In this document: one piece after another, positions 11,570 through 31,380 of the stretch
How the letters are laid out: every line of letters starts with the position of its first letter
Numbering within the stretch: position 1 is the first letter of the stretch
Origin: Candidatus Thorarchaeota archaeon
GTDB taxonomy: Archaea > Asgardarchaeota > Thorarchaeia > Thorarchaeales > Thorarchaeaceae
DNA: 33,061 nucleotides
Assembly: GCA_048882325.1 (NCBI GenBank)
Contig: JBHLRS010000032.1
Span: 1 to 33,061, forward strand
Reading direction: 5' to 3'
Made by a program: the position numbers and the translations under genes
The notes under the pieces: generated by a model
Databases searched by the model: none
What the model was told of the DNA's origin: nothing
The model's input: only the letters and a program-made list of their open reading frames with translations

Positions 11570-13888
11570 CTAGCGGCGAAGATAGAAACGTCTATTCATC
11601 AAATTTCCTAACAGTGAGAGGACCCGTCGATCCACAAGAGAGATACCATCGATCATTCTCAAGGCACGGGTTAGGTTTGAAAAGACTGCATTCAGGTATG
11701 GTTGTGCCTCCACAATCTCGGATTGCTCAACCATCTGAAGATATGCATTAGCTATCTTAATCAGTCCAAGCCAATCCTCAGCTAGAAGATAGTTATACTG
11801 TGATCCATCTATGGATACAGGACTGCCCTCGAATCTTCCTCTGTCAATGTATGCGGCATACTGATTCTCCAAAGCAAATGCAAAGCGCCGGAGAACTTGT
11901 GACAATGAAGAGGAGGTTGCTTTAATGAACTCTGCAGACTCTTGAAATGCTGGTTCAATTGAGGTGACTTCTCCGAATGCGATAGCGGCCCCATAAAAAC
12001 CAGTGGCTAACTCGGAGTAGTCCTTGTTGTCATAGAATGCTTTGATTGTCTGGACGAGGTAAGTCTGACCCAGCCAATATTGTGCAAGTAATGGATCGTT
12101 CTCTTGAACCGCATCATCAACTGGTGGCTGAATTCGCACGCCAAACTCCTGATTCAATGCATTCAGGTTTATTTTGGCTGTTGAAAGTGCTGCAATAAGA
12201 CCAGCGACTCCAGCAAGAGGAGAAGTACTTTGACTCATTGCCTTTGATCGTTCAAGAAGTGAGTTCCATGAACATTCGAGGAATGGGACTACCAGACCCA
12301 CACCGTGAATGAACATAGACTCTGCGTCTACCCTAACATCACTAAGCATTCTATCAATGTCATCAAGAAGCCTCCTGAGTCTGGGAGGAATATCTCCACT
12401 GTGACGAGTTAGTAACCAGACTACATTGTATGTTGCAATAGCAACCTCCACGAAGGCACGTTTATCTGTGGGAAACAAAGGCACATACTGCACGAGTATC
12501 TCCCGGAGCGGATCTTGGATATCTACATTGGTTCTCTCAGTGGTTCGTAAATCTGACAGCGCAAGTCCCATTCGACTGCCTATTAGATCCAGCTCAGCAA
12601 TACGACCTGCTGCAAATTGCTCCTCTCGCAAGGAAACTGCTCTCTCAAAGGACGCCTGTCCGATAGGCCAAAATTCGTCACATTCTGTGCTTAGACAAAG
12701 CCAACCAATTGCATTCTCAGTTCTGGTGAGTTCAAGGTCTATATCCGGATAGAGATTTTCTAACTCGTGAAGGATTTCCTTTGCACCATTGAAATAGTCT
12801 ATTGCCTTTGTCATGTTTTCATGGTCGCCAAGGAGACCATGAGCGAATCCAAGACATGCTAATGTTTTGAACACATGTACATTCTGTTCGGGTGTCTTGT
12901 CATTGATGTTGTCGAATATCCGGAGTCCAACTTCAAGTCTATCAATAGCTTGTGGAACACCTTCTCGCCACCCATTCGCCAAGATACTCGAACCAATCAC
13001 AACATGAGCCAATCCAACTTCTTCTACACTAACCTCGCCAGCTTTCAAGGCGATGTCATAGAGTTCTGCCGCTTTATCAGAAATACTACGGGCTACTGTG
13101 TGTGGTACAGAGTCATCCCGTGTTTCATTCACTCCAAGTTGAAGATTTACTGCAGCAAGCCCCGCGCTATCATTATTAGCTCGTGCAACCTTTTCAAGAT
13201 CATTCAGATACTCTCGGGCATCACTGAAAAGATAAAGTTCGGTCAAGACACAAGCATAATCATATGTTACTTCAAATTCGAAGTCCTGCATTCCAACTTC
13301 CTTGCTTATCTCGATCAGTCTGTTGAGAAGGAGTTCTGCGCCTTCAAAGAATCCTTCCTCTATGAGAATCCAAGCGAGGCTATGAACCTCAAACAGTGCA
13401 AGATGTGTTGTTCCATCATGCCGCCTGTCATATATTGCGTTCAATGTCATTAGGACCTCGTCGGCCAAGAAGGGGAGAAGGGGTCTAAGGTTAAGACGAA
13501 TGGAGGAGTTTAGAGCTTGAGACAGTTCACCCAATATATCAAGTAATTTAGGAATGGCTTCAATATCCGGATCTATCTCACATTCAGATCGTCGATGACT
13601 ATTCGTGTACCTTGTATCCAGAAGCATGAGCAGCTCAGGGATAGATTGATTCTTGTGGAAGGACAGCCGAATTGACAGTTCAGTAAGTTTAGCACTAGCA
13701 AGTCCAGGTCGTCTTAGAATTATCTCCTCAATCGCACGAGCAATATCGAACAAGGTATTGGATTCATCAGAATTATTGAATGGGATATTTTGGACAGCGG
13801 ATAAGCCATCATCTAGAGACATGTTTGCACAAAGTATGTCTCTCAATGTTGCTATCAACTGTGCCTGCAATGGAGCCTCTCCTATCAA
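11570..13888 (-). CDS. Large alpha-helical (TPR-like) hypothetical protein
   Basis: 772-aa Leu/Ala/Glu-rich ORF with TPR-like segments (LACLGFAHGLLGDHENMTKAIDYFNGA; NAIGWL...FERAVSL). Last gene of the minus-strand kaiC-like run. Start approximate. Confidence 0.75.
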   Translation of the reverse strand: MIGEAPLQAQLIATLRDILCANMSLDDGLSAVQNIPFNNSDESNTLFDIARAIEEIILRRPGLASAKLTELSIRLSFHKNQSIPELLMLLDTRYTNSHRRSECEIDPDIEAIPKLLDILGELSQALNSSIRLNLRPLLPFLADEVLMTLNAIYDRRHDGTTHLALFEVHSLAWILIEEGFFEGAELLLNRLIEISKEVGMQDFEFEVTYDYACVLTELYLFSDAREYLNDLEKVARANNDSAGLAAVNLQLGVNETRDDSVPHTVARSISDKAAELYDIALKAGEVSVEEVGLAHVVIGSSILANGWREGVPQAIDRLEVGLRIFDNINDKTPEQNVHVFKTLACLGFAHGLLGDHENMTKAIDYFNGAKEILHELENLYPDIDLELTRTENAIGWLCLSTECDEFWPIGQASFERAVSLREEQFAAGRIAELDLIGSRMGLALSDLRTTERTNVDIQDPLREILVQYVPLFPTDKRAFVEVAIATYNVVWLLTRHSGDIPPRLRRLLDDIDRMLSDVRVDAESMFIHGVGLVVPFLECSWNSLLERSKAMSQSTSPLAGVAGLIAALSTAKINLNALNQEFGVRIQPPVDDAVQENDPLLAQYWLGQTYLVQTIKAFYDNKDYSELATGFYGAAIAFGEVTSIEPAFQESAEFIKATSSSLSQVLRRFAFALENQYAAYIDRGRFEGSPVSIDGSQYNYLLAEDWLGLIKIANAYLQMVEQSEIVEAQPYLNAVFSNLTRALRMIDGISLVDRRVLSLLGNLMNRRFYLRR

Positions 13889-13932: not shown

Positions 13933-14646
13933 TCATCTTTCAATTACGAATTCATGCCACTCACGAGAGGTGTCTGTGCCCCTCATACGTTCCATCCGAA
14001 GCTGATGAGTTGGTATGGGACCACTATCATCGATCCTGAAACGAAGAACTGCATCAGCCAGGTATGAAAATGTAGCATAGGTCTTTTCCTCATGAACACC
14101 TTCTTCAAGAATGTACATGATGCTATGTGAGCCCTGCTTTATTCGACCACTCAGCCGCTGAACTGCTCTGGGCATCGTAGTAGGGCTCGAGTGTAAAATC
14201 AAAGTGGAGAGACTGTCTATTACAACCCTAGCTACAACAAGCTCCTCTAAAACCTCCGATAGGACTATCCCAAGTTCACTGATGTCATCTACTTTTGCCA
14301 GAGACCTCGCACCCCCGGAACTTGGAGCTCCCATCCGTTCGGAATAGCCATCAATGAAGACAAACTGACCGGATGCCTCCTGCTCTTCGATGGTCCATCC
14401 GTACCGACTCATATCATTACGAATGACCCTCGGAGAAACATCAGTAGTTACAAAGACTGCGGGGAATCCTAAGGCGACTCCTTCAGCAAGAAACGCTTCA
14501 GCATAAGTTGTCTTTCCAGATCCAAGTGGACCGACCAGCATATACGATACTTGAGTAAGCTGACCAAACTTCACAAGATCGCTGATCATTGGAGATGCTT
14601 TTGCTGCGGGCGGTACCACCCTTTGCGCGTCCTGATTCTCGACCAC
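13933..14646 (-). CDS. Single-domain KaiC/RAD55-family ATPase (divergent)
   Basis: Walker A GPLGSGKTT, Walker B RVVIDSLS, FSYLADAV, RMRGT; catalytic EE replaced by TDV. Confidence 0.88.
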   Translation of the reverse strand: MVENQDAQRVVPPAAKASPMISDLVKFGQLTQVSYMLVGPLGSGKTTYAEAFLAEGVALGFPAVFVTTDVSPRVIRNDMSRYGWTIEEQEASGQFVFIDGYSERMGAPSSGGARSLAKVDDISELGIVLSEVLEELVVARVVIDSLSTLILHSSPTTMPRAVQRLSGRIKQGSHSIMYILEEGVHEEKTYATFSYLADAVLRFRIDDSGPIPTHQLRMERMRGTDTSREWHEFVIER

Positions 14647-14670
14647 TTTATGGGCCCCACAATTTTCTGA

Positions 14671-15417
14671 TTAAACGCCGGGACTTATCTCTCCGGGCCA
14701 GACTCGGATTCCTTCTTCTGTGATTCTCATTGAGTGAATTCTTGAACTATGTTTTGAGCCTCTCAGTTTGAGAACCTCAATTGAACGAGACCGTGAAGTG
14801 TCACTAATTTTCTCGTTATAGAGTACAATTACACCCGACGCTAAGAAGGCTTCGATATCAAAAACGCCCAATCCCTGATCTTGAGCGGGTATCTCGCTTG
14901 TCAAGAGAAGTGTGCATCCAGTTCTTGTGATATTTGCAGTGAGCTTGAAGAACTCCTCTCGAAGAATGTCTCTACTCCTAAACTTGTATGCCATAATCGA
15001 GAGTGTGTCAAGAACGACTCGTTTCGCCTTCAGTTTCTTCACGTGATTTAGAATAATTGCTTCAAGTCCTGAGAGGTCAAAACTGGGATATTCTCCAATT
15101 GTTACAGGAGTGACTTCTTTTGAAGGCGAAAGATCTACTATCGTGATCTTCTTCTCCTTCTCCAACTTCTCTAGGTCCATACCAAACCGGAGCATGTTTC
15201 TCTTAATCAAATGTGGTGGTTCTTCAAGAGTAACAAACACTCCAGGTTCATTATATTCAGTGGCACCCTTGTAGATGAACTGGGTAGCAAGTATGCTTTT
15301 TCCCGTTCCAGCCTTTCCAGCAATGAGAATAGTATCACCTCTAGGAAAGCCGCCCTCGATGAGTTCATCGAGACCAGGAATACCAGTCTTTACTCGGTCT
15401 ATTATAAGGTCGCTCAT
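14671..15417 (-). CDS. Single-domain KaiC-family ATPase (KaiC CI-like)
   Basis: TGIPGLDELIEGG, Walker A GKAGTGKS, EPGVFVTLEE, FDLSGL, RVVLDT, EVLKLRGSKH. Confidence 0.93.
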   Translation of the reverse strand: MSDLIIDRVKTGIPGLDELIEGGFPRGDTILIAGKAGTGKSILATQFIYKGATEYNEPGVFVTLEEPPHLIKRNMLRFGMDLEKLEKEKKITIVDLSPSKEVTPVTIGEYPSFDLSGLEAIILNHVKKLKAKRVVLDTLSIMAYKFRSRDILREEFFKLTANITRTGCTLLLTSEIPAQDQGLGVFDIEAFLASGVIVLYNEKISDTSRSRSIEVLKLRGSKHSSRIHSMRITEEGIRVWPGEISPGV

Positions 15418-15746
15418 TTTGACCCATCCTTCTTTTTCGTCATCACTTTGGCACCGAGAACCATTTTCATCAGCATGTCTGGTTCAGGGATACCAGTCAC
15501 TGATACACCTCCGATCATCACAGTTGGCAGCGCAAAGATACCAAATTGTTCAGCAGCCTCGGGGTTCTCACTGACATTGATCACTTTGAGAGTGAACACT
15601 TCAGAGCCAAAGTCTTCAATCGTTTCTCGAATAACCTCTTCCGCACGTGGACAGAACGCACAAGTGTCAGACTTGAAGAAGACAACCTCTATCTTCTCTG
15701 CATCGCTCTTCTTTGTCGATGCTTTGCGTTTTTTCTTGTCCGCCAA
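15414..15746 (-). CDS. Thioredoxin-fold protein (CAFC), overlapping the KaiC-like gene
   Basis: FFKSDTCAFCPRA CxxC, INVSENPEAAEQFGIFALPT; Lys-rich termini; 4-bp overlap with the downstream ATPase. Confidence 0.9.
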   Translation of the reverse strand: MADKKKRKASTKKSDAEKIEVVFFKSDTCAFCPRAEEVIRETIEDFGSEVFTLKVINVSENPEAAEQFGIFALPTVMIGGVSVTGIPEPDMLMKMVLGAKVMTKKKDGSK

Positions 15747-15852
15747 ATGGTAGCACTCCTAGGTTTGAGAAACGGCAAGGTTTCAATCCATGTTTGTCAC
15801 TTGAATGTTTTGAGGGTGTCAGCTGAGGTCATTGGCTATTACAGGGATAATA

Positions 15853-16236
15853 TCAATACTTCAACAGACGCTTAATCTTTGTCGCGGCCTTGCCCACGGG
15901 TCGTGAGTGATACCGGACATTACGGGGCATCACAGCTGCTAAAATGAGTGATTGCTTTCCACTTGTTCCAATCTTTTTGAAGACTGCCTTACCCTGAGTG
16001 CATCGGATACTGATATCACGAATGTCACCGAGCTTCAATTCCTTCCGAACTCGTTCTGCGGAGTCCGAGATAAAACCAGAAACTGCAGCTACAACATCTC
16101 TGTCTGTCCCAGGGGCAATTGCAGAGGCAATAGAGAATCCGTCATCTCTGACCAGTGAGGAGATTGTGAATCCACCCTCCTTGTTCATTTGCTCTAGGAT
16201 CTTCGGAAGTACTCCATAGTCAGGACGACTCATCAT
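15853..16236 (-). CDS. Roadblock/LC7 (MglB-like) domain protein
   Basis: SSLVRDDGFSIAS, DVVAAVSG, ELKLGDIRDISIRCTQGK pattern. Start moved to ATG 16236 (or 16233) behind GGAGAG; the longer ORF overlaps the divergent Rab gene. Confidence 0.88.
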   Translation of the reverse strand: MMSRPDYGVLPKILEQMNKEGGFTISSLVRDDGFSIASAIAPGTDRDVVAAVSGFISDSAERVRKELKLGDIRDISIRCTQGKAVFKKIGTSGKQSLILAAVMPRNVRYHSRPVGKAATKIKRLLKY

Positions 16237-16357: not shown

Positions 16358-16924
16358 ATGAGCGACATGTCAGCTGAATATCGGTACAAGATCGTCATGT
16401 TAGGGGACGGTGCCGTAGGAAAGACTGCCATGACTACTCGTTTCACTCAGAATTTCTTTGATTCAGATTATAAGCGAACAATCGGGTCAGATTTCGCCAT
16501 CAAGAGACTCAAACTCAAAGATGAGGACACAGAAGTCCAAGTGACGCTCCAAGTATGGGATCTCGCCGGGCAACCAAGGTTTGAGTCTGTCCGTCAGGGT
16601 TTCTATAGGGGAGCCAGAGGAGGACTACTTCTGTATGATGTGACTCGTCGAAGAACTTTCATAAATGTTGAGAACTGGAAGAATGAGGCCTTCAAGAACC
16701 TACAGAATGAGATTCCGCTAGTCCTTGTCGCGAACAAGGTTGACCTCAAAGAAAGCCGTGTTGTTACAACAGAAGAGGGTGAGGATTTCGCGAAGAAAAA
16801 TCAGTTCTTCTATGTCGAGTCTAGTGCTTTGACAGGGGAGAATGTCGAGGAAGCATATGCTAATCTATGCAAGAAGATGATTAAGGATTCCAAAAATTCC
16901 ACTCAGACAAGAGTCATGGGATAA
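16358..16924 (+). CDS. Rab-like small GTPase
   Basis: GDGAVGKT, TIGSDF, WDLAGQ, FYRGARG, NKVD, ESSA; no C-terminal prenylation Cys. ATG 16358 follows GAGGAG. Confidence 0.95.
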   Translation: MSDMSAEYRYKIVMLGDGAVGKTAMTTRFTQNFFDSDYKRTIGSDFAIKRLKLKDEDTEVQVTLQVWDLAGQPRFESVRQGFYRGARGGLLLYDVTRRRTFINVENWKNEAFKNLQNEIPLVLVANKVDLKESRVVTTEEGEDFAKKNQFFYVESSALTGENVEEAYANLCKKMIKDSKNSTQTRVMG

Positions 16925-16930
16925 TGTCTC

Positions 16931-18061
16931 TTACTTCCGAGTAGTTCCTTTTAGTAGACCTAGTTCACGCTTACATTGCCACACTAGATAGAAGATCTTC
17001 TTGGTCGCTAAGGTTTCCTCATCATAGTTGCTGCACAGGTCTTCGAACTTCTGAACCAAGCCATCACGTGTTTCTGGACTGATCGTGGATTTGATTTCAC
17101 TAAGTAGTGCCTCAAATGGTGCCATTGTAGCCGCCAAGTCGGTCACTTCCCAACGAATGATAGCACCAGTACCATCGGAGGTGAGGAAGGATTGGGTCTT
17201 TGGATACCACTCGATACCATCAATTTCACCCATTGTTGATGCTTCACCGTTAATCGCTAGTTTCTCAGTATCCCACAGATAAACAGTCTTGTCACTAGAA
17301 CCAGAAGCTAAATACTTGCCATCCTCACTGAAAGACAGTGCACGAACCTCAGTGCTGTGACCCTGAAGAATGTGTTCCACCTTCATTGGGGTACTTGATG
17401 AATCCCAGAGTATCATATGGAGATCAGATGATCCAGAAGCTAGTCTTGATCCATCTGATGTGAACCGAACCTGATGGACTGCTGCACGGTGCTCATTATG
17501 ACGCTGAATCATCTCACCTGAGTTTGAGTCCCACTCGCAAATGTTAGCATCAACAGAACCAGAAACAATTCTATTCCCATTAGGGTCCCAGTCACAGGTA
17601 ACAACGTAAAAGCCGTGTCCTTTCAAGTGATGGACAGGTTCACGAGCATTATTATCAATGTCCCAGATCATCAAGGTTGTGTCACCACTTCCAGAAACGA
17701 GTTTGTCACCATCAGGTGAGAAGGCAAGTGAAAGTATTGGATACTCATGGCCGGTCAATGTTGCTAGGAGTTCACCACTTTTGATGTCCCAAAGCTTCAC
17801 AACACGTTCAACACTACCTGATGCTAAAATATCACCTCGCGGACTGAAAGCAATTGAAGTACACAAGAAATCATCTTGCATCCGTTGTATCTCTTCTCCG
17901 GTGTCTGCGAAATATAATCGAATACTACGGTCCTGTAATGCTGCTGCGAACATGCGACCAACTTTGTTCATGGCAAACCTTCGAGTAATTTCGGAACCAT
18001 GCTCAGCTTGGTCTTTCAGAATCACTGGTTTGAGGAAAATTGAGGTCTCTTGACGCTCCAT
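16931..18061 (-). CDS. WD40-repeat beta-propeller protein with helical C-terminal tail
   Basis: Repeated GH...FSPDG..L.SGS.D.....WD units (about 7 blades). Start moved to ATG 18061 (MERQETSIF); the ORF-track extension overlaps the divergent gene. Confidence 0.93.
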   Translation of the reverse strand: MERQETSIFLKPVILKDQAEHGSEITRRFAMNKVGRMFAAALQDRSIRLYFADTGEEIQRMQDDFLCTSIAFSPRGDILASGSVERVVKLWDIKSGELLATLTGHEYPILSLAFSPDGDKLVSGSGDTTLMIWDIDNNAREPVHHLKGHGFYVVTCDWDPNGNRIVSGSVDANICEWDSNSGEMIQRHNEHRAAVHQVRFTSDGSRLASGSSDLHMILWDSSSTPMKVEHILQGHSTEVRALSFSEDGKYLASGSSDKTVYLWDTEKLAINGEASTMGEIDGIEWYPKTQSFLTSDGTGAIIRWEVTDLAATMAPFEALLSEIKSTISPETRDGLVQKFEDLCSNYDEETLATKKIFYLVWQCKRELGLLKGTTRK

Positions 18062-18243
18062 TGATGTCACACACAGAACCGTTCTAAGAGCCCGAGGCCG
18101 GAGATAGCGTAAAAGTCTTGTTGATACGTCATTCCATGCTTTGTGAATTGGACTGATGTGCACCGAGTAACACCAGTGAATTAATGTCACATCACAGCAA
18201 CCATTATCTACTCTGAAGCAGGCCATCAACAGGAGGGTGACCC

Positions 18244-19467
18244 TTGGCCGAGAAAGACGAGCGACGAATCCTTTCAGCATTGGGTGGAGGAGAATCAGTC
18301 GGTCGGCTTAAGAAGGCAGTGAAGGGAATAATCAGGAAACCCAATGATTTTGTTGGGAAGATGCTGGAGAATCTAACAAGTATTCAAGCTTGCAAGGATG
18401 CTGCTCTTACTGGAGATGATGACCTTCGTCTTCTTGCTGTGTGTCGACTAGGGGAGTTTGGTGCTTCAGCCTTTGAAGCTCTTGATATCTCACTTAACGA
18501 TGAGAGTCCACTCGTTCGAACTGTTGCAGCAGGAATGCTGGCATACACCGAGGATGAAGAAGCAGTAGAGATATTGAAACCATATCTCAGTGACAATAAC
18601 GAAACTGTGAGAGATGCAGTCGAGTTCGCTCTTGGGTGGCTTGAAGAGTTCGCCTGTGAAAAAGAACATGGTACACGAATTCCTGACAAGTGGGAAAATC
18701 CTGCTGAGATTCTTCTTGACACAGATGCCATCCCACTAAAAACCTCAGAAGAGGTGGAGGTTGTTAGTACGTACACAGCACTGCCAGAGAGTCTCGAGTT
18801 TGGGATGACTGTGGAAAACAAGACACTCGAGCCAATTCATGAGGTTTCAATCAAAGTCTTGATGTATCCAAAAGAGAGTCTCAAGCCACTAGATCCACTG
18901 AGTCAGCTCATTGTAACAATCGAGCCGGGAGGAGTTGAGGCACTAATCTTCGGATTCAAGGTTACGAAGGAAGTTGTCGAAGGCGAGTTTGTCACATCAG
19001 TTCAGTTTATTGACGAAAAGGGTGAAGATATAGCTGCAATATCTGGGAACATATTTGTGAGGTCTCTATTTGAACAGGTCATTCCTCTTGAATCAACTCC
19101 AGAAGAACTTCTCAGTCTTAAATCCGAGATGAAAGAGTGGAACAGAGAGCACTCCCTGGCTGTGGAGGGAAAAGAACTCTTCAAGATTGTCAACGAGCTC
19201 TTTCAGACATGGAATCTCCACGTAGTACAATCAGAGCAGACCGAACGAGAAGATGTGTTCATGGGTGTTGTTTCGGGAATGGCCAAAGGAAGAATCCATG
19301 GAGAAAAGCTTGCAGTCACCCTGACAGTAGTTGGAAGACTCAACGATGACCTCTCAAAATTACGAATTGATGTGCTGTCTGAAGATTCAGAGGTTCTACA
19401 CACTGTTGCTAGTGTACTTTTTGAAACAATCCAGAGAGAGCTTGGTGTAATCGAGATGGATTTCTAG
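18244..19467 (+). CDS. HEAT-repeat protein with putative adaptin/coatomer appendage-like C-terminus (Ig sandwich plus platform)
   Basis: HEAT repeats (LNDESPLVRTVAAGMLA, LSDNNETVRDAVEFALG); beta-rich middle (FGMTVENKT...TIEPGG...FGFKV); alpha/beta C-terminus ending LRIDVLSEDSEVLHTVASVL. HEAT part is secure; appendage call is pattern-based. Confidence 0.72.
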   Translation: MAEKDERRILSALGGGESVGRLKKAVKGIIRKPNDFVGKMLENLTSIQACKDAALTGDDDLRLLAVCRLGEFGASAFEALDISLNDESPLVRTVAAGMLAYTEDEEAVEILKPYLSDNNETVRDAVEFALGWLEEFACEKEHGTRIPDKWENPAEILLDTDAIPLKTSEEVEVVSTYTALPESLEFGMTVENKTLEPIHEVSIKVLMYPKESLKPLDPLSQLIVTIEPGGVEALIFGFKVTKEVVEGEFVTSVQFIDEKGEDIAAISGNIFVRSLFEQVIPLESTPEELLSLKSEMKEWNREHSLAVEGKELFKIVNELFQTWNLHVVQSEQTEREDVFMGVVSGMAKGRIHGEKLAVTLTVVGRLNDDLSKLRIDVLSEDSEVLHTVASVLFETIQRELGVIEMDF

Positions 19468-19469
19468 AT

Positions 19470-20036
19470 CTATGCTAGTCCTCCAGCCTCGAGAATCTTG
19501 ATGGCTAATTCCAGAAAAGCCGCTTCGACATTAAGTCCTGTTTTTGCAGAGGTTTCCAAAAATGAAGTGATGACACCGTGTCCAGCTATTTTGTTTGCAA
19601 GTGCCTGTCCTTCTTCAGTTGTGACTAATGTCTGAGCCATCACAGGGTTATCCTTGAACTGGTCACGTAGGTCGGTTTTGTTAGCAATTAGAACGATGGG
19701 GATTTTCTTCCCAGCATTGGTCCAACACTCATCCACCCAGTTCATGAGGTTGTCAAAGGACTTTCTCTCCACAGTGGAGTAGACAGCCAGTGCACCCTGA
19801 GCTCCCTTGTAGAAGGTAGAACGCACGCTCTTGAAGTGCTCTTGTCCAGCTAGATCCCAAATTTGTATACTCACATCATGACCGCCCTCAAGGGCCATCT
19901 TTTTGACAGCAAAGTCTGCGCCGATGGTGATCATATAGTTAGCTCTAAAGCCTTCTCCCATGTAGGTCCTTCGGAGACTGGTCTTTCCGACACTTCCATC
20001 TCCCATCAATACAACCTTAAACAGTGCAGTGACCAT
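19470..20036 (-). CDS. Rab-like small GTPase
   Basis: GDGSVGKT, TIGADF, WDLAGQE, FYKGAQG, NKTD, ETSAKTG; no prenylation Cys. Confidence 0.95.
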   Translation of the reverse strand: MVTALFKVVLMGDGSVGKTSLRRTYMGEGFRANYMITIGADFAVKKMALEGGHDVSIQIWDLAGQEHFKSVRSTFYKGAQGALAVYSTVERKSFDNLMNWVDECWTNAGKKIPIVLIANKTDLRDQFKDNPVMAQTLVTTEEGQALANKIAGHGVITSFLETSAKTGLNVEAAFLELAIKILEAGGLA

Positions 20037-24094: not shown

Positions 24095-25435
24095 TTATTC
24101 TGTCACAGCATGAGCTTGCATTGTAATCCGTGGTTTGAGTTCTCGCACAGGAATTCCAGTTTCTTTTGACACACGGAGAACATCATCAGCCTCTGGTTTG
24201 ATGTTCAAGATACTTCCATCCACAGTTCGTGAAACCTTCACCCGAATCATGTATTCCTTACCATCAATCTCGAAACTGCAGACAATGGTTTCACGTGTGG
24301 CCTTGAGTCGTTGCCAATTCGTATAACGAATCCCAATTGTACCAAGATTCTTGACCATCACATCAGCGATACTCTTTAGACCAGCTTTGGCTGCAATCAC
24401 CTTGACGACGTAACAAGGTCGATTCTTCTTGCCTATGGCAGGTATAATTGTCACATCATATGCGAGACCCTCCTCCAGAAGAGTGTCAAACAATGTGGCA
24501 AGAGTTTCACCATCAACATCATCAACATTGGTTTCGATGACTATAACTTCATCTTCATTCCAACTATCAATCACTTTGGGCTTCTCCTCAGGTTTAGGTT
24601 TAGTCTCTTTTGGAGGTTTGGTCTCTTTCTTCTTCGGTGCTTCTTTGACTGGTTTGCTTTCCTCTTCTTCAGAAATAACTGTCTCACCAATAACAATCGA
24701 CAACATGTTGGGTGTCTTTCCGAGGTCTCGAATACCAAAACCAAATCCCTGACTCTGGGCAACGAAATCCTCGTGGGATTCAACAAACTTGTCTGTGATC
24801 GCAATAAGGATAGCAGCTCCTGTTGGAGTCAATACTTCGGTCTTAGCTTTTCCATTGTGATATGGAACATCATTGGCAACCAACATCTCAGCTACAGCTG
24901 GAACAGGAACCTCAAGGAGGCCATGTTCGGTCTCTATTGTCCCACTACCAACTGCTACACGAGTTGATAGAAACTCAGCCTCACCTAGAAGGCCAGTCTT
25001 CTCAAGAAGATAAGCAGTCCCTACAATATCTAGGATTGTATCAACAGTCCCTGTTTCGTGGAGATGAAGTTCATCGATAGGTTTGTCATGAGCCCTGCTT
25101 TCAGCTTCGAGAATTTCGTTTAGAGCTTTCACTGCAATTTTCTTTCCAGCATCTGAAAGTTCAACCTCTTCTGCAACTGAATGAAGAACTTCCATGATTG
25201 AGATGGGAGTGAAACGAATACCGGAATTTTGGGTCACTTGAATCTGGCGTCCAGTTATACCAGAATGCGTGTGGGTAACCATGTTTATACGAAAAGAGGG
25301 GTCGTAGATTAACAAACTCGCTGCTACTGGAAGTAGAGCATTATCCTCTCCAATCAAGTCCATCAATGCTGAGAGGAACATGTCACCTGAGGCTCCAGCA
25401 GTTGACACATCAATGAGTACTGTCTTCTTAACCAA
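24095..25435 (-). CDS. larC: Nickel-pincer cofactor nickel insertase, LarC family
   Basis: GASGDMFLSAL, AESRAH...LHLHETG..DTILD, HGLLEVPVPA, LTPTGAA, ETNVDD, KKNRP, TIGIR, KPEADD. Confidence 0.92.
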   Translation of the reverse strand: MVKKTVLIDVSTAGASGDMFLSALMDLIGEDNALLPVAASLLIYDPSFRINMVTHTHSGITGRQIQVTQNSGIRFTPISIMEVLHSVAEEVELSDAGKKIAVKALNEILEAESRAHDKPIDELHLHETGTVDTILDIVGTAYLLEKTGLLGEAEFLSTRVAVGSGTIETEHGLLEVPVPAVAEMLVANDVPYHNGKAKTEVLTPTGAAILIAITDKFVESHEDFVAQSQGFGFGIRDLGKTPNMLSIVIGETVISEEEESKPVKEAPKKKETKPPKETKPKPEEKPKVIDSWNEDEVIVIETNVDDVDGETLATLFDTLLEEGLAYDVTIIPAIGKKNRPCYVVKVIAAKAGLKSIADVMVKNLGTIGIRYTNWQRLKATRETIVCSFEIDGKEYMIRVKVSRTVDGSILNIKPEADDVLRVSKETGIPVRELKPRITMQAHAVTE

Positions 25436-25558
25436 ACAGCATTCCTCCGCCTGATTCGCTATTAGTTGAATGCGAAATTTTCATTATTCCGACAATGGAC
25501 CTGTAATCTGATACTAAACTCTCTTTCGGACCAACCTAAATAAGATTGTCAGCTTGTA

Positions 25559-26353
25559 TCAATCAACTGTTATATCACTAGGAATGCTTGCTCTCCATTG
25601 TTCGAATATTGCCATGTACATACATTCGGCGGGTGGAATCCACATTTCTGCTGAGTCAAATGATTGATCAACAAACTCAACGGGAGCATTTCGAATAATC
25701 GATGCAGGAATCGACTCATTAGATTCCCCCATAACAGCAGTGCATGCGGATGCAAGATTATCTGCGATGGCACGTCGTGTTATTCTCAATTCATTCCCAA
25801 ATAGATCCTTTCGTCCCCTGTCATCAGCCACAGGGTAAAATCCTGCTACTCCAAGTGCCATTCCAATATTGCCTAGCCTTAGAGGTTGTGTGCGACTATC
25901 GATAACAAGCACACCAATTGCGATTCCAAGTCTGTCTTTAATCTCATTTCGAAGCCTGGTAGCACTGGCACGAGGATCCTTGGGTAACAATGAAGCATAA
26001 CCCGGAGGCACATTTGATTTGTCAACACCTGCATTTGCCATCAGCGTGTTGCTCTTGATTGTAAGTACGACATGGGGAATCCCACCTAGGATTTCGTCAG
26101 CTTCTTGGATGATAAGCTCAGCCACCTCAGGTAGCAATTCATATTTATCAGCTAAGACTCTAGCGTCATCTGATGGTTCAACTTCAGACAGATCAACGAC
26201 TTGACCTTCAGTTGTACCAAGAGGGGTTTCAGCTACACCCAAAATGTCATTCTCTCTCAGTTCTACACTCGCATCCCTCATTCCTCTGAAAAGTACATCA
26301 ACGAAGGAATCCTCAGATGTTATGATTCGCGTATTAATAGGAATAATCTGCAT
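25559..26353 (-). CDS. cofE: Coenzyme F420-0:L-glutamate ligase (CofE family)
   Basis: ANAGVDKSN, LLPKDPRASA, DSRTQPLRLG, GRKDLFGNEL, ADNLAS, MGESNE. Confidence 0.9.
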   Translation of the reverse strand: MQIIPINTRIITSEDSFVDVLFRGMRDASVELRENDILGVAETPLGTTEGQVVDLSEVEPSDDARVLADKYELLPEVAELIIQEADEILGGIPHVVLTIKSNTLMANAGVDKSNVPPGYASLLPKDPRASATRLRNEIKDRLGIAIGVLVIDSRTQPLRLGNIGMALGVAGFYPVADDRGRKDLFGNELRITRRAIADNLASACTAVMGESNESIPASIIRNAPVEFVDQSFDSAEMWIPPAECMYMAIFEQWRASIPSDITVD

Positions 26354-26395
26354 TCTGTTGACCCAGAGTGGGTTGTCAACGGTTGATAGATAAAG

Positions 26396-27808
26396 TCATC
26401 CACGTCCCTTGTGCTGAAGTTTCATTCTCTCATCCATGATGCATTTGTCGCCTTTTCGACCCCCCATGGGATTTCGGATTGTACCCATTGAGTTCATGCA
26501 TCTTGCAGCAACTGCAGCTCCCATTGCTAGTCCATCCTCAACGAAGAGAATGTCATGCGAATCCACCCATAATTCACCATTGGTCTGTCTAAGGTTTCCA
26601 ACAATCAGGTTGGGTTTCTGACCAGTTATGATTGACCGCCCTGTTAGACCCAATGATGTATTGTCCAATATGAGACCTTCAATCTCAACAATTTTGAGTA
26701 GACTTTGTACAATTTCAGCCATTACATGGTCAATAACACCAAGAAGCATATTTGCTCCTAGTTCATCAACGGTATCTTTGCCCAGTTGCTCTAATTCCTT
26801 AAGCCGTGACCCGTTTGAACCGACGTCTACTCCTACCAAGACTATCCCAGACTCTTTTGCAGCTTTGCCATTTACTGGAACAGTGCCAAAGCGCTTGTCG
26901 GTTTCTTGAACTCTTTCTATACGAATTAGATCATCGAACCACTCATTCACAATCTTGGTTTTACTTGGTCGTATTGATTGAGGTATGTCCAAGACTGATC
27001 CATTTTCCTCGGGAACCAATCCAGTTTTTCGCACTAATGCGTCAGGAATTGCTCCAGCCAATCCTACAAAAGACCCAATTGTCTTTGCATATGGAAACCC
27101 ATCGTCTGTGATTCTTCCCGCTAGAGTAGTGCCAAAATCAAGTGTCAATACTGGATTCCTAAAGTCGATAGTGGTGCTCTTGGCAGCACCCTTGATACCT
27201 GCTGTTACGAGCTCGCCCTCCATTTCATTGGCCACAATCGAGGTGTCTGATGGTGGAAGAGAACTTGCCACTGCACCATCGAAATAGACCTTTTTGAGCC
27301 AAGTGAAGTCTTGCAGTCCAGGAGGAAGATTTTCTGGGACAAGCGATGCTGTCATCTTTCTTGGCGGAACCCCAGCGTTCAGACAACCATCCGCAAGTGC
27401 TTGTACAATCATTCCAACCTCTTCTGGTTTACTGAATCCTGCGGAGACTCCGGTTGACCTAACAACAAAATGCAGATCTTTGTCAATGTCAAGTCTCGCA
27501 CGCGTCATGACAGTTGTAAGCACATTGGTGATCATTTCAGACACAGATTCTCGAGTTAAACCAACACCAAAGATGGTTCTCCCAAACACATACTCGTTAG
27601 GCTTTGGAGGTCGGACATTCCTCGTCATCCGAACATCCTTTTCTATCTCATAGATTTCTGCTGTTTCAAGATTCGTTGTAGTTAGAATGCACTTCGTGGT
27701 AGTATTCCCGAGCTCTATTGATGCAACAGTGTAGAAGGGACCTTTACGGATTGATGACACCCCAATTGAACGAGGTTTAACAACCCGGTCTTTCTTCAAT
27801 AACACCAA
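26396..27808 (-). CDS. Methanogenesis marker protein 14 (DUF2114-like)
   Basis: FYTVASIELGNTTTKCIL, FVVRSTGV, ANEMEGELVTAGIK, DFRNP...DFGTTLAGRI, DGLAMGAAV.ARCMNS.G...NP.GG; adjacent to mtrH. Confidence 0.88.
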   Translation of the reverse strand: MVLLKKDRVVKPRSIGVSSIRKGPFYTVASIELGNTTTKCILTTTNLETAEIYEIEKDVRMTRNVRPPKPNEYVFGRTIFGVGLTRESVSEMITNVLTTVMTRARLDIDKDLHFVVRSTGVSAGFSKPEEVGMIVQALADGCLNAGVPPRKMTASLVPENLPPGLQDFTWLKKVYFDGAVASSLPPSDTSIVANEMEGELVTAGIKGAAKSTTIDFRNPVLTLDFGTTLAGRITDDGFPYAKTIGSFVGLAGAIPDALVRKTGLVPEENGSVLDIPQSIRPSKTKIVNEWFDDLIRIERVQETDKRFGTVPVNGKAAKESGIVLVGVDVGSNGSRLKELEQLGKDTVDELGANMLLGVIDHVMAEIVQSLLKIVEIEGLILDNTSLGLTGRSIITGQKPNLIVGNLRQTNGELWVDSHDILFVEDGLAMGAAVAARCMNSMGTIRNPMGGRKGDKCIMDERMKLQHKGRG

Positions 27809-27815
27809 CTCCGTT

Positions 27816-28751
27816 TTAGACTAGCTTTTTGAATGGATGACCATCAGGGGGACTTACACCAAACTCACGCTCTGATGACTCAGCTATGAAAACATCTCCC
27901 AGTGCAATGACAGGAAAGACTCGTTCTGCGTTCTCAATTGGGCCATAGAGAACAAAATCAGCACCCATCATCTGTACAATGAGATTTGAAGCGGCGTCCA
28001 CAGTTAGGAATCCGTCCCGATTGGACTTCTTGTACTTGCGGAGCCAAGACCATGACGATGGTGCATTATGAACACCTGACCCAGTAGGATGGCCGTATAC
28101 TGTTTTTGAAACGAAAGTGAAAGCAGCAGCAGACCCAGCTCCAGCCCCAATTGCAGTCACTGCAGTATCAATCAAAGGCTTGGTTACACCCAGCTCTCTA
28201 GCGATTTCGAGAAGTCCCTTATCCAGGGTTAATACACCATCTTCCAAGACCGCTCTCCTTCCAGCAATAGAGGGGTCCTGAGGGTTGAAGGCAAGAAGCA
28301 GTGCACAGTCATGTTGTATCTCTCGAAGTGCTTCGATCTCTTCAGCTGTTGCAGATACATTAAGTGAGTTGTATATTGCACGATCGAGAAGTCCAACCTC
28401 TTCAGCGTGTTGCAAACCAGCAATTCGGACCATTGGCTCTGTAGAGTCAACAAGAAAAGGTGCGTCGGTCAAGTCGGTGACAAAATCAATGTAGGTCCTT
28501 AAGGCTACTTCCGACTCAGAGAATATTTGAACTAGTGCGGGATTCCCGGTAATCTCAGACATCTCATCCTGCCTATGAATAAGCTGAGAGGCATTCTTCT
28601 TGTCAAAAAGACCTTTTTTTGGATCAGTAACTAATTTATGACCACTGTAAAAGATTGTCCCGGCAAGGACCGTCGGAGTTTCTCCAGGGTTCCCTCCGAT
28701 TCTGACACCTCCAATGTTGTGTATCAACTGCTCTTTTTCAAATACAAACAT
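27816..28751 (-). CDS. mtrH: Methyl-tetrahydromethanopterin methyltransferase subunit H
   Basis: MFVFEKEQ, GGNPGETPTVLAGTIFY.GH, PFLVDST, IYNSLN, GSGVHNAPSSW, GADFVLYGPIENA. Confidence 0.93.
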   Translation of the reverse strand: MFVFEKEQLIHNIGGVRIGGNPGETPTVLAGTIFYSGHKLVTDPKKGLFDKKNASQLIHRQDEMSEITGNPALVQIFSESEVALRTYIDFVTDLTDAPFLVDSTEPMVRIAGLQHAEEVGLLDRAIYNSLNVSATAEEIEALREIQHDCALLLAFNPQDPSIAGRRAVLEDGVLTLDKGLLEIARELGVTKPLIDTAVTAIGAGAGSAAAFTFVSKTVYGHPTGSGVHNAPSSWSWLRKYKKSNRDGFLTVDAASNLIVQMMGADFVLYGPIENAERVFPVIALGDVFIAESSEREFGVSPPDGHPFKKLV

Positions 28752-28756
28752 GTATC

Positions 28757-29443
28757 CTAAACCTCCCTTCCAAAGAGAACTGTACCAGCCTCGTCAACTA
28801 GCACCTCGATGACTGTTTTCGAGGGGGTCTCGGACACCATAGCATTTGCTCGCTGGTGCATCACTAGAAAACTGAAGGCATCTAGTATAACTCCATATTC
28901 TGGAAGGATTATCACATCAGCTCCCATAGATCGCCTTGACGATTTCTTTGTGGTTACCTTAAACTCAACCCACATTGCGCCTTCAGAGAATTCACCAGGA
29001 TTTTTGAAACTCAACTCATGCGCTTTGGCTCCGATTTTCGTAGAATCATTTGTGTTAATCATATCAATTAACTCAACCTGCTTTCTGAACTGTTCTATTC
29101 CTTCAAGTGGGATGTTCTCGATGTATGGAATAGCACCTTCGGCATCGAGTATCTTCCTTGTTTCAGGATCTACTCCATTTTGATAGAGTGCTTTCAATGA
29201 TCGACCTGTAAGGTGACCAGGAACTTCTGGTCCTGACAGAATTAGATATCGAATGTATGGATTAGAAATGACATTGATAATGATACGTTCGATTCCGATG
29301 TTCTCAGTCTTGCAAGTTCCAATGATGGCATACTCTGTGTCGACGTGAATCTTCTTTCCAAGAGTACAAATCGCAACGCAATGAGAAGGATTACCGACCT
29401 CGAAGTCTCCTGAGATTGGGGGCCATTCGCGATTTCCACTCAT
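28757..29443 (-). CDS. mtrA: Corrinoid protein MtrA/MtxA-like, without membrane anchor
   Basis: WPPISGDF.VG.P, GTCKTENIGIE, SNPYIR, EVPGHLTG (His ligand), GAIPYIEN. Start moved to ATG 29443; the longer ORF overlaps the upstream mtrH. Confidence 0.92.
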   Translation of the reverse strand: MSGNREWPPISGDFEVGNPSHCVAICTLGKKIHVDTEYAIIGTCKTENIGIERIIINVISNPYIRYLILSGPEVPGHLTGRSLKALYQNGVDPETRKILDAEGAIPYIENIPLEGIEQFRKQVELIDMINTNDSTKIGAKAHELSFKNPGEFSEGAMWVEFKVTTKKSSRRSMGADVIILPEYGVILDAFSFLVMHQRANAMVSETPSKTVIEVLVDEAGTVLFGREV

Positions 29444-29459
29444 ATTCTCTTTCACACCC

Positions 29460-30377
29460 CTATTCGTGAGTTGGAGGATCAAATAGCCTTCTGTCAATAT
29501 CCAGAGCACTATTTGCCTCAGCTATGGCTGTAGCCATAGCATTTGCTGTCAGAGCTACAGCTGTAAATACTTCCTTCGTATGAATCATGGATCCATACAT
29601 TACAGAGTCTGCAGCGAAAAGCTGAGCTGCAACTATGGAGGCAACAAGAGCAGCAACCTTGGTGGATTCATCGTCTAAACCAGGGCGCTTTATGAATTTC
29701 CAAGCGGAGGGAGCATTGTGGGGTCCTAGACATGTTGGTAGGCCCAGCTCAGATTTAATGGCCATTGTCGTCCTGTATTCAAGACCGTGACCAGCTCCGA
29801 CTGGCATTGTTGCGGGATCGATTAGAATCTTGTTAATCTTTAATGACTCAGCAAATGTGAGCGAATCACGTATTGTTTCCATTCTATCAGGTAGTGAAGT
29901 TGCTCGAGGCGACCATCCCAAAATAACTGCCATGTTTATTGAGCTATCCTTCAGGACTCGTTTCTCTTCCTCTTTCATAGAGAGATTGATAGAATTATAT
30001 ATCACTCTCTCAACGAGTCCGGTTTCTTCACAATACTCAATGGCTCTGATTCGCGCTTTGGCATTTGTTGACTCGAACATGAAAGGACCCTCGAAATTGT
30101 CAGCTAACCAAGAGAGATGCTTTACCATCGCAGCTGGGGTTCTGCCATAGGCTTGTATGACAAGAGGATGACCAGTCTTCTCCACCATGGATATGCCTGT
30201 GTCTATCCACATCTTCGTGGTCTTCTTATCAAATACACCCTCTCTAGTATCCTTCATTATTGGTTGACCTTTGAAGAATAGGCCACCAATTAGAACGGTA
30301 GGGTTCTCTCCAGGATGTCCACCGATTGTCACTCCTCCGAAATCAAATGCTTGTTGTTCTCTCTTGAATACAAACAT
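29460..30377 (-). CDS. mtrH: Second, divergent MtrH-family methyltransferase
   Basis: MFVFKREQ, GGHPGENPTVL, IYNSIN, GPHNAPSAW, YG; divergent at PFMFEST (versus PFLVDST in the other copy). Confidence 0.85.
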   Translation of the reverse strand: MFVFKREQQAFDFGGVTIGGHPGENPTVLIGGLFFKGQPIMKDTREGVFDKKTTKMWIDTGISMVEKTGHPLVIQAYGRTPAAMVKHLSWLADNFEGPFMFESTNAKARIRAIEYCEETGLVERVIYNSINLSMKEEEKRVLKDSSINMAVILGWSPRATSLPDRMETIRDSLTFAESLKINKILIDPATMPVGAGHGLEYRTTMAIKSELGLPTCLGPHNAPSAWKFIKRPGLDDESTKVAALVASIVAAQLFAADSVMYGSMIHTKEVFTAVALTANAMATAIAEANSALDIDRRLFDPPTHE

Positions 30378-30388
30378 GATACTTCACC

Positions 30389-31315: not shown

Positions 31316-31380
31316 TTTTCAGATCTCCCAATGTTCTTATCGTGTGTGACAGTTGCTACCCTAAATTGGTTTTGCTGAAA

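Follow-up and report, generated by a model that had tools for sequence, protein, structure and literature searches.

Our analysis of a 33,061-nucleotide stretch of DNA from a Candidatus Thorarchaeota archaeon (contig JBHLRS010000032.1, hereafter the window) revealed a 407-residue protein which, as suggested by structural models, is a real soluble 'mini-adaptin' composed of a HEAT stalk, a predicted hinge and a bilobal ear of the adaptin/COPI type. The best explanation of the data, to which we give a probability of about 60%, is a soluble mini-adaptin with a genuine ear that is optional in a Thorarchaeal GTPase-switch neighbourhood and is not an obligatory coat subunit. Membrane traffic in eukaryotes is defined by adaptor and COPI coats, whose origin is debated. 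Ear, trunk and small-subunit domains appear only as separate pieces in the consulted portions of the published Asgard surveys; as modelled, the HEAT-ear protein unites helical stalk, predicted hinge and ear in adaptin order, and its gene lies close to that of a Rab-like GTPase for which purification and crystal structures, under the name Thor-Rab, are on record. The features of the locus and of the HEAT-ear protein are given below by position in the window.

13933..14646, minus strand: KaiC-like ATPase, second copy, constant backbone (Pfam PF06745, E 1.1e-30)
14671..15417, minus strand: KaiC-like ATPase, first copy, constant backbone (Pfam PF06745, E 4e-71)
15414..15746, minus strand: thioredoxin-fold / KaiB-like small protein (Pfam Thioredoxin_3, E 1.3e-8)
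15853..16224, minus strand: Roadblock/LC7-like gene, divergent to RabA (Pfam PF03259, E 4.9e-4)
16358..16924, plus strand: RabA, Rab-like small GTPase (Ras family, E 9.2e-53)
16931..18061 (open reading frame to 18280), minus strand: WD40 beta-propeller protein, 376 residues (WD40, E 1e-51)
18244..19467, plus strand: HEAT-hinge-ear protein ('mini-adaptin'), 407 residues (Pfam HEAT_2, E 6.3e-8)
18295..18339, plus strand: N-terminal basic amphipathic helix, about residues 18-32 (hydrophobic-moment calculation)
18349..18651, plus strand: HEAT stalk, about three repeats, residues 36-136 (HEAT_2 at residues 57-130; model helices)
18670..18738, plus strand: predicted disordered acidic hinge, residues 143-165 (pLDDT <50, AlphaFold2)
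18739..19086, plus strand: ear, beta-sandwich (Ig-like) lobe, residues 166-281 (models; fold matches)
19099..19440, plus strand: ear, platform (alpha/beta, helix-grip) lobe, residues 286-399 (models; fold matches)
19470..20036, minus strand: RabB, second Rab-like GTPase (Ras family, E 1.6e-46)

Open reading frames and Pfam matches confirmed the four-gene mirror order RabA(+), WD40(-), HEAT protein(+), RabB(-) that the original prediction had placed at 16358-20036, together with its convergent gene ends 6 bp and 2 bp apart (gaps 16925-16930 and 19468-19469). The true start of the WD40 protein was set to M74 at 18061 because every orthologue alignment begins at this residue. The Roadblock/LC7-like gene at 15853-16224 was not named in the original prediction.

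The proposed layout of the HEAT protein, in which HEAT repeats are followed by a beta-sandwich and an alpha/beta region, was borne out by AlphaFold2 models with these parts at residues 36-136, 166-281 and 286-399 (pLDDT of the full-length model 79.3). The stalk found its best PDB sequence matches among alphaRep/PBS-type HEAT proteins. In 13 sampled orthologues, the N-terminal helix at about residues 18-32 has a hydrophobic moment of 0.70-0.72, the maximum of the protein, and a net charge of +3 to +7; AlphaFold2 confidence is low over this helix, which may be regarded as a candidate element for binding a membrane or a partner. The alignment of 34 orthologues, including that of the window, displayed the hinge motif ENPxEILLDTDxIPL in the nearer clade, and the platform residues W299-N300-R301-x-H303 are invariant across the subfamily.

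The C-terminal region claimed to resemble an appendage (residues about 165-407) was modelled as ear only (243 residues), which resulted in a bilobal structure with pLDDT 95.6 and pTM 0.84. Two independent fold searches, both run with this predicted model of the ear, ranked AP-2 alpha/beta2 and COPI appendages highest. Among 48,161 chains searched by VIA-align, the top match was the alpha-adaptin ear (1w80_A, Z 15.9, 211 residues aligned), followed by beta2 (3h1z_A, Z 13.7), gamma-COP (1r4x_A, Z 13.4), the AP-4 beta platform (Z 13.2, 120 residues), COPI (5a1u_E, Z 12.2) and BBS9 (Z 11.7); the remaining matches listed had Z <=11.7 and were nearly all confined to a single lobe of about 84-109 residues. 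AP-2 or COPI ears likewise filled the first 14 rows of the Foldseek search (best 9qpq_H, E 5.5e-11, TM 0.66). The likeness to BBSome subunits noted earlier was also recovered, at a rank after the AP-2 and beta/gamma-COP appendages.

As far as the models indicate, the sandwich and platform are arranged in the same way as in the ears of AP-2 alpha/beta2 and beta/gamma-COP (Z 12.2-15.9 over 206-214 residues, TM <=0.66; structures compared were 1w80, 2vj0, 1b9k, 1e42, 3h1z, 2iv9, 1pzd, 1r4x, 5a1u_E and 9qpq_H), and, as in adaptins, the ear would follow a flexible hinge, here a predicted one, and HEAT repeats. The adaptin trunk, however, is an Adaptin_N domain of 500-600 residues, whereas the stalk described here comprises about 100 residues of PBS/alphaRep-type HEAT_2; in the HEAT-ear protein, Pfam matched only HEAT_2, with no match to PF01602 (Adaptin_N). 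In contrast to AP and COPI complexes, the HEAT-ear protein has no known medium or small subunit. The Pfam search of the locus found neither nearby, PF01217 had no match in this genome or in the control genomes, and PF00928 gave a single sub-threshold match on another contig. AP and COPI are recruited by Arf-family GTPases, whereas the GTPases adjoining the HEAT-ear gene are Rab-like; a further difference is that the family of organisms to which this genome belongs can do without the HEAT-ear gene. Protocoatomer proteins carry a propeller followed by a solenoid in one chain, whereas here WD40 and HEAT repeats lie on separate proteins. The GAE-plus-platform unit of the BBSome (BBS9, 6vbu_9) aligns with both modelled lobes (Z 11.7, 187 residues), lower than the AP/COPI ears, and in BBS proteins this unit comes after a beta-propeller within a large Arl6-recruited complex.

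Conservation of the neighbourhood was assessed with the HEAT protein as seed, in 34 loci at the species level and with the assessable loci as denominators. All four genes occur together in 18 of the 34 loci, and the arrangement is therefore no chance layout of a single contig. Where the HEAT-ear gene exists, it adjoins WD40 or RabA in every assessable locus (33/33, down to 39% identity), and this constant position is compatible with a functional link. The claim of linkage across relatives is borne out only in part: the HEAT-ear gene is missing in 5/5 genomes from five other genera of the same family, in which the locus is otherwise intact, with the order KaiC-KaiC-Trx-Robl, RabA, WD40, RabB, PolB; in all five, Roadblock is kept and RabB lies directly upstream of WD40. 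Matches of the A1 profile in these genomes were confined to ear regions. WD40 is missing from 7/33 HEAT-bearing loci; its orthologue was not found in the four WD40-less genomes searched (best 37% in three, no match in G303). RabB is not at the locus in 8 of 29 assessable loci, and a RabB orthologue (86-87%) was found elsewhere in 5/5 genomes lacking it at the locus. Roadblock (28/28) and RabA (30/31 assessable loci) are nearly always present, the thioredoxin/KaiB-like gene was found in every locus whose flank extends to it, HEAT-less loci included, and the first KaiC-like copy shares 83-96% identity over the 28 loci reaching that far and 76-86% over the five HEAT-less loci. The constant core consists of Roadblock, the thioredoxin/KaiB-like gene, two KaiC-like genes and RabA, joined in many genomes by the RabB-WD40 pair. 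Within this conserved Thorarchaeal GTPase-switch neighbourhood, the HEAT-ear gene is facultative.

RabA matched Thor-Rab (7EZB) with E 1.7e-97, and the RabA orthologue of SMTZ1-45 (L011) is identical to 7EZB over 178/178 residues; by sequence, RabA is orthologous to Thor-Rab, the GTPase of Candidatus Thorarchaeota SMTZ1-45 that has been crystallised. According to the paper on the structures 7EZB, 7EZD and 7EZE (PMC10933270), Thor-Rab folds like a Rab, hydrolyses GTP slowly on its own and has no C-terminal cysteines; the portion consulted leaves gene neighbours unmentioned, and the paper lacks the term 'WD40' and uses 'HEAT' only for temperature. The nearest solved relatives after Thor-Rab were Rab11/14/2 for RabA and Rab1/2/8 for RabB, the GTPase motifs GxxxxGKT, DxxGQ and NKxD are visible in both sequences, and the Pfam Ras matches (E 9.2e-53 and 1.6e-46, respectively) are far above those of Arf (1e-10 and 5e-9). 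Both GTPases lack lipidation motifs, as predicted: their C-termini (...TQTRVMG and ...LEAGGLA) are cysteine-free and the N-terminal Gly2 is absent in both. RabB evolves very slowly, with 93-100% identity among close loci and 85% in L039.

The search for relatives of the HEAT-ear protein yielded 178 homologues, whose names, where given, were Thorarchaeota or Promethearchaeota with one Odinarchaeota label, and the ear alone retrieved 161 representative proteins at E <= 1e-3. Judged by sequence features, a putative membrane-spanning segment precedes the ear in most other members of the ear family, and a zinc ribbon usually comes after it: in a sample of 60, a hydrophobic segment lies N-terminal to the ear in 46 and at least two CxxC motifs follow it in 39. 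Four ear paralogues are present in the same genome, three in tandem on contig C2 and one on C8. In the tree, all 14 HEAT-fused members (classed by N-terminal motif) and seven others form a 21-row clade (branch length 1.64, SH-aLRT 100), and the HEAT-ear protein is accordingly placed by phylogeny in a distinct subfamily of the archaeal ear-domain family. Archaeal adaptin-ear (Ig + TBP/helix-grip) domains have already been published (10.1101/2024.02.06.579148; PMC10307638; PMC12962969), and, compared by description, they have the same two-domain module as the HEAT-ear protein. As far as the consulted portions of these sources go, the published proteins often consist of a transmembrane segment, the module and a Zn ribbon, resembling the C2/C8 paralogues, whereas the HEAT-ear protein is soluble, without a Zn ribbon, fused to HEAT repeats via a hinge and placed in a separate deep clade. 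In the part of the 2023 Nature Asgard paper covered here (PMC10307638), Table S3 has 33 PF02883 rows, all Loki/Hel/Sif and none Thor, and a legend describes the adaptor domains as 'not fused to each other'; two 15-residue strings of the HEAT-ear protein had no match in the part of Table S3 searched. The 2026 Nature Microbiology survey (PMC12962969), also seen in part, has archaeal rows matched to COPB1 in its Data S3. The Thorarchaeal rows seen among these published data span residues 464-737 and 100-340, a length that would suit the C2/C8 paralogues. No description of a HEAT-hinge-ear fusion was found in the literature searched.

It is unlikely that the likeness of the ear is convergent, i.e., that an Ig-like sandwich and a helix-grip, both common folds, were joined without shared descent. 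Such an origin would be in line with the identity of only 10-13% to the solved eukaryotic ears, with the many unrelated Ig-like or helix-grip proteins matched by single lobes (Z 9-11) and with the result that none of the Pfam ear families scored above its curated cut-off for the ear. Both lobes, however, align in register (187-214 residues) only with ears and BBSome GAE-platform units among the matches listed, and the named matches listed by the language-model search are all eukaryotic adaptin/COPI ear clusters (scores 0.92-0.86). Furthermore, Coatomer_b_Cpla weakly matched the platform, below threshold, in 9/60 family members (best E 2.7e-4), and Pfam-based screens, in the part of PMC10307638 consulted, give Alpha_adaptinC2 in Loki/Hel proteins, many with a transmembrane segment, the module and a Zn-ribbon. 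The protein might instead work with ear-bearing membrane proteins or ESCRT-type sorting, a role that has been proposed for adaptin-ear domains of archaea, its Rab adjacency being inherited synteny only; we regard this reading as unlikely. The spread of the module over 161 representative proteins, the common membrane-type layout (46/60 and 39/60) with ectodomains of the surface type (beta-helix, SBBP, LVIVD, PKD, solute-binding), the synteny of the entire neighbourhood and the link drawn between archaeal ears, ESCRT loci and protein sorting in the consulted part of a 2024 preprint on ESCRT evolution (10.1101/2024.02.06.579148) speak for it; the absence of any ESCRT gene found within the window, of ESCRT or GTPase genes among the neighbours of the C8 paralogue, and the long branch dividing the HEAT-fused clade from the membrane-tail clade speak against it.

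The original prediction of a compact coat/adaptor module is supported for the structure of the ear, as modelled, and is not supported for the four genes as a unit. A single GTPase-driven coat or cargo-adaptor module of RabA, WD40, HEAT-ear, RabB and Roadblock, a forerunner of COPI/AP in which a Rab would recruit the HEAT-ear protein and the propeller would form the outer layer, is quite unlikely. Its parts list is coat-like (propeller, solenoid, ear, small GTPases), the four genes stand together in 18/34 loci, the HEAT-ear gene occupies the same place wherever it exists, and the propeller of the WD40 protein is followed by a helical tail (C-terminal, about 65 residues) that is strongly conserved, the last 16 residues with a mean conservation of 0.87 (19 sequences). 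We also counted in its favour the acidic-hydrophobic hinge motif ILLDTD, which has a loose resemblance to a clathrin-box pattern; the motif does not, however, follow the presence of WD40. The parts are separately dispensable (HEAT-ear missing in 5/5, WD40 in 7/33, RabB away from the locus in 8/29), the GTPases are of the Rab rather than the Arf/Sar type, the stalk has only about 100 residues, and solenoid and propeller are on different chains. Unrelated genes, those for family B DNA polymerase and for KaiC-like ATPases, are equally syntenic in the family, and adjacency therefore lends little weight to a coat module; the locus is a patchwork of neighbours that can be dispensed with, and gene order alone is therefore no proof of a proto-coat. 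Very doubtful, as a whole, is the scenario that would make the HEAT-hinge-ear protein a remaining relative of the adaptin/COPI large-subunit ancestor and a primitive Rab-controlled cargo adaptor; there, GTP-loaded RabA (Thor-Rab) or RabB and the basic amphipathic N-terminus would carry it to the membrane, where it would use its ear and hinge to bind the WD40 propeller and those surface proteins whose cytoplasmic tails bear an ear. In the preferred reading, that of an optional mini-adaptin, short motifs may dock on the ear, which might be tethered to a partner or membrane by either the stalk or the N-terminal helix, and the protein could act as a scaffold or effector, possibly for one neighbouring Rab-like switch.

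The Roadblock/LC7-like protein is a candidate regulator of RabA. Its PF03259 match (20.2 bits) is below the 23-bit cut-off, and its PDB sequence matches are the Roadblock proteins 7f8m (1.2e-4) and 7yh1 (1.9e-3). As in MglA-MglB-type pairs of small GTPase and Roadblock, the Roadblock-like gene is divergent from a small GTPase gene, an arrangement kept in 28/28 loci, but the GTPase here is Rab-like, not MglA-like, and the Roadblock assignment is sub-threshold. In many loci, a weak second KaiC match is found next to the first copy. The thioredoxin-fold protein matches KaiB with 27.4 bits (cut-off 27), and its gene and the first KaiC-like gene overlap by 4 bp.

Modelling of the 407-residue HEAT_2 protein (the HEAT-ear protein) with AlphaFold2, from an alignment of 37 sequences, predicted the following order of parts along the chain.

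N-terminus: basic, low confidence in the model
residues 36-136: HEAT helices
residues 143-165: disordered stretch, the hinge
residues 166-281: beta-sandwich
residues 286-399: alpha/beta domain

The original prediction had likened the C-terminal region to the appendage of coat and adaptor subunits, and fold searches of the modelled residues 165-407 bear this out, with AP-2 and COPI ears returned first by both VIA-align and Foldseek. The ear alone, modelled from an alignment of 60 diverse family members, reached a pLDDT of 95.6 and a pTM of 0.84, and its best matches among 48,161 representative chains were bilobal ears.

Best VIA-align matches of the modelled ear (chain, protein, Z score, residues aligned)
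1w80_A, alpha-adaptin ear, Z 15.9, 211
3h1z_A, beta2 ear, Z 13.7, 206
1r4x_A, gamma-COP ear, Z 13.4, 214
2mj7, AP-4 beta platform, Z 13.2, 120
5a1u_E, COPI coat, Z 12.2, 209
6vbu_9, BBS9, Z 11.7, 187

Matches below these six had Z <= 11.7 and were nearly all one-lobe alignments of about 84-109 residues. The top 14 rows of the Foldseek search with the ear-only model were all AP-2 or COPI ears (best 9qpq_H, E 5.5e-11, TM 0.66/0.66), and the whole protein matched 5a1u_E of COPI first, across stalk and ear (E 2.4e-12, 425 columns), with a poor global superposition. In a language-model feature search, the named matches listed were exclusively eukaryotic adaptin/COPI ear clusters, with scores of 0.92-0.86. 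Sequence comparison gives a weak signal: the Coatomer_b_Cpla model reached E 0.076 with the HEAT-ear protein and matched 9 of the 60 members of the family (best 2.7e-4), all below the curated cut-off. A whole-protein profile searched against PDB sequences found alphaRep/PBS-type HEAT proteins only and no ear; hence the stalk is regarded as ordinary prokaryotic HEAT_2 and not Adaptin_N. On the strength of the models, the HEAT-ear protein is described as a real mini-adaptin. Sequence comparison and structure prediction establish the order of its domains, the relationships within its family and the pattern of gene presence, and give the ear fold as a prediction.

Search of the 3.6 Mb Thorarchaeota genome that carries the window as its contig C32 (93% complete) for mu, sigma and Adaptin_N families gave nothing usable. 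The Adaptin_N model also matched Bacillus and methanogen controls and therefore reports generic HEAT repeats. A weak Adaptin_N-like HEAT protein was seen on contig C73:2384-3076 (457-residue frame; L051/L052) and a sub-threshold match to the mu-homology domain on contig C6:12233-12475 (594-residue frame; L053).

Homologues of the HEAT-ear protein numbered 178 at E <= 1e-3, and the named ones belong to Thorarchaeota/Promethearchaeota, save one labelled Odinarchaeota. With the ear alone as query, 161 representatives were found among 1.84 billion proteins at the same threshold, and 60 of the 150 listed were sampled for architecture. A hydrophobic segment precedes the ear in 46 of these 60 (within 160 residues in 40) and is absent in 12, and at least two CxxC motifs follow it in 39. 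In the 30 members scanned with Pfam, the N-terminal parts were of surface type (beta-helix/NosD, SBBP and LVIVD propellers, PKD/Ig, solute-binding protein, LanC-like); a single LRR fusion and a single WD40 fusion were also seen. Across the database the ear mostly stands behind the transmembrane stretch of a large surface protein, which suggests that it forms a cytoplasmic tail. Four further ear copies occur in the same genome:

contig C2, 5096-10711 of locus L006: three tandem genes with N-terminal TM, ear and C-terminal zinc ribbon
contig C8, 1372-3648 of locus L002: protein of 758 residues in which about seven zinc-ribbon repeats precede the ear

No GTPase or ESCRT genes were found in the neighbourhood of the C8 paralogue. 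In a tree of 60 proteins over 243 ear columns, all 14 HEAT-fused members, a class assigned by N-terminal motif, fell inside a 21-row clade separated from the other 39 by a branch of length 1.64 (SH-aLRT 100). Residues W299, N300, R301 and H303 are invariant across the HEAT-fused alignment and variable in the wider ear family. With one query sequence, ear matches were detected in 87 of the phylum's 301 genomes, among them 71/76 in the family of the window, 1/1 in f2, 9/68 in f9 and 5/5 in f16.

Ear regions in archaea have been described in a preprint by Makarova and colleagues. Its accessible sections (10.1101/2024.02.06.579148) report adaptin appendage (Ig + TBP) regions both from ESCRT loci of archaea and from multidomain proteins of Asgard archaea that carry Vps28-C and longin, assign the appendage domain to the archaeal ancestor, and name HEAT for eukaryotic adaptins only. 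Fusions of Vps28/Vps23 to C-terminal domains of adaptin/COPI subunits appear in the available part of 10.1101/2020.10.19.343400. In the portion of Table S3 of Eme et al. 2023 (PMC10307638) that was covered, 33 PF02883 rows belong to Lokiarchaeales, Helarchaeales or Sifarchaeia and none to Thorarchaeia; many have a TM-ear-Zn-ribbon layout, and two 15-residue strings of the HEAT-ear protein had no match there. The accessible entries of Data S3 of PMC12962969 (2026) include COPB1 matches for two models from Thorarchaeota, one covering residues 464-737 and the other 100-340; compared by length alone, these ranges would suit the ear paralogues rather than residues 165-400 of the HEAT-ear protein. 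Adaptin-like HEAT/ARM clusters are mentioned in 10.64898/2026.10.28.762692, in whose available text the word "appendage" is absent. The HEAT-hinge-ear fusion and its locus were not found in the searched portions of the literature, these Asgard and ESCRT papers included, and a search for a Thorarchaeota WD40/HEAT/Rab gene cluster yielded no relevant publication.

The ORF listing and Pfam agree on the four genes that had been proposed as a coat-like locus, together with the convergent gaps of 6 bp and 2 bp between them; the Roadblock gene was unlisted in that proposal.

15853-16224, minus strand: Roadblock/LC7-like gene, divergent to RabA
16358-16924, plus strand: RabA (Rab-like GTPase), Pfam Ras family, E 9.2e-53
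16931-18061, minus strand: WD40, Pfam WD40, E 1e-51
18244-19467, plus strand: HEAT-ear protein, 407 residues, Pfam HEAT_2, E 6.3e-8
19470-20036, minus strand: RabB (second Rab-like GTPase), Pfam Ras family, E 1.6e-46

The WD40 ORF extends to 18280, and the alignment of every orthologue begins at Met74. Synteny was followed by tblastn from the HEAT-ear gene through 34 species-level loci (39-83% identity), 18 of which hold the complete four-gene set.

Presence of neighbouring genes in assessable HEAT-seeded loci (L-numbers denote loci)
Roadblock: 28/28
RabA: 30/31, lost in L025
WD40: 26/33, absent in L028, L029, L030, L032, L036, L040, L041
RabB: 21/29, missing from L028, L029, L030, L033, L036, L037, L038, L040 (each with over 1 kb of flank)

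The WD40 orthologue was not found in four WD40-less genomes searched, one of them a complete chromosome; the best match was 37% identical, and one genome had none. A RabB of 86-87% identity sits elsewhere in all five genomes searched of the eight lacking it at the locus. RabB evolves very slowly: among the closer loci it keeps 93-100% identity, including those in which the HEAT protein is down to about 50%. It carries the insert LRDQFKDNPVMAQTLV after its NKTD motif. The hinge motif ENPxEILLDTDxIPL occurs in the nearer clade only, and no co-variation with WD40 presence was found: the hinge of L036, which lacks WD40, is near-identical to that of WD40-bearing L035.

Several genera of the family have longer ear paralogues only, as judged by E-values and ORF lengths. 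Five genomes of five such other genera (86-98% complete) were entered through their RabA orthologue (67-74% identical), and all five show the order KaiC-KaiC-Trx-Robl, RabA, WD40, RabB, PolB without a HEAT-ear gene; the HEAT-ear profile met only ear regions there (profile positions 132-397). The interval between RabB and WD40 can thus be with or without the HEAT-ear gene, whose presence there is optional. In these genomes WD40 has RabB immediately upstream on its own strand, at a distance of about 90-110 bp in four loci and 457 bp in one, which suggests a RabB-WD40 transcription unit (L054, L056, L057, L058) that was split by the HEAT-ear gene in the lineage of the window. Since unrelated genes, PolB and the KaiC-like ones among them, share the synteny to the same degree, a neighbouring position counts as weak evidence for joint function within the family. 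Of the compact coat/adaptor module originally proposed, the appendage fold is supported, as a modelled ear, and the linked module is not supported: the HEAT-ear gene is missing in 5/5 of these loci and WD40 in 7/33. The four or five genes form a mosaic of neighbours, and a coat is not demonstrated.

RabA is the orthologue of the crystallised Thor-Rab: it matches 7EZB at E 1.7e-97, and over 178 residues the copy from SMTZ1-45 (L011) is identical to 7EZB. According to the parts of PMC10933270 consulted, Thor-Rab hydrolyses GTP slowly on its own, like Rab11B, lacks C-terminal cysteines and may require a GAP or GEF; the term "WD40" is absent from that article, and "HEAT" refers only to temperature. 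The closest solved relatives of RabB, next to Thor-Rab, are Rab1, Rab2 and Rab8. As originally predicted, neither GTPase has a lipidation motif, a C-terminal cysteine being absent from both. Complex prediction of the HEAT-ear protein with RabA, GTP and Mg scored 0.00 in both runs, which, made without controls, is evidence neither for nor against binding.

By analogy with adaptin ears, the ear might dock short motifs. The best-kept segment of the WD40 tail is its C-terminal end, FYxxWQCKRxLGLLKG (16931-16990, minus strand; mean conservation 0.87 in 19 sequences), and being aromatic and basic it is a candidate docking motif. The helix at residues 18-32 of the HEAT-ear protein has the highest hydrophobic moment of the protein (0.70-0.72) and a net charge of +3 to +7 in 13 orthologues sampled; together with the stalk, this basic amphipathic helix could tie the protein to a partner or membrane. 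RabA may be regulated by Roadblock, and RabB and WD40 might act together.

Downstream of Roadblock, on the same strand, Pfam identifies one thioredoxin/KaiB-like and two KaiC-like genes; with Roadblock they form an operon-like run (13933-16224, minus strand) in which the thioredoxin-fold protein also attains the KaiB cut-off (27.4 vs 27 bits). The run is kept in all loci with enough flank, HEAT-less genomes included, and suggests a KaiBC-like unit coupled to a Rab/Roadblock switch. A 772-residue ORF (11570-13888, minus strand) has no Pfam match at E <= 1e-5. Elsewhere in the window, a C1-metabolism run (24095-32667, minus strand) comprises two MtrH-like genes, MtrA, MTHFR, DUF2114, F420-glutamyl ligase and a nickel-insertion protein, and an HflX-like GTPase is encoded at 31381-32667 (minus strand).
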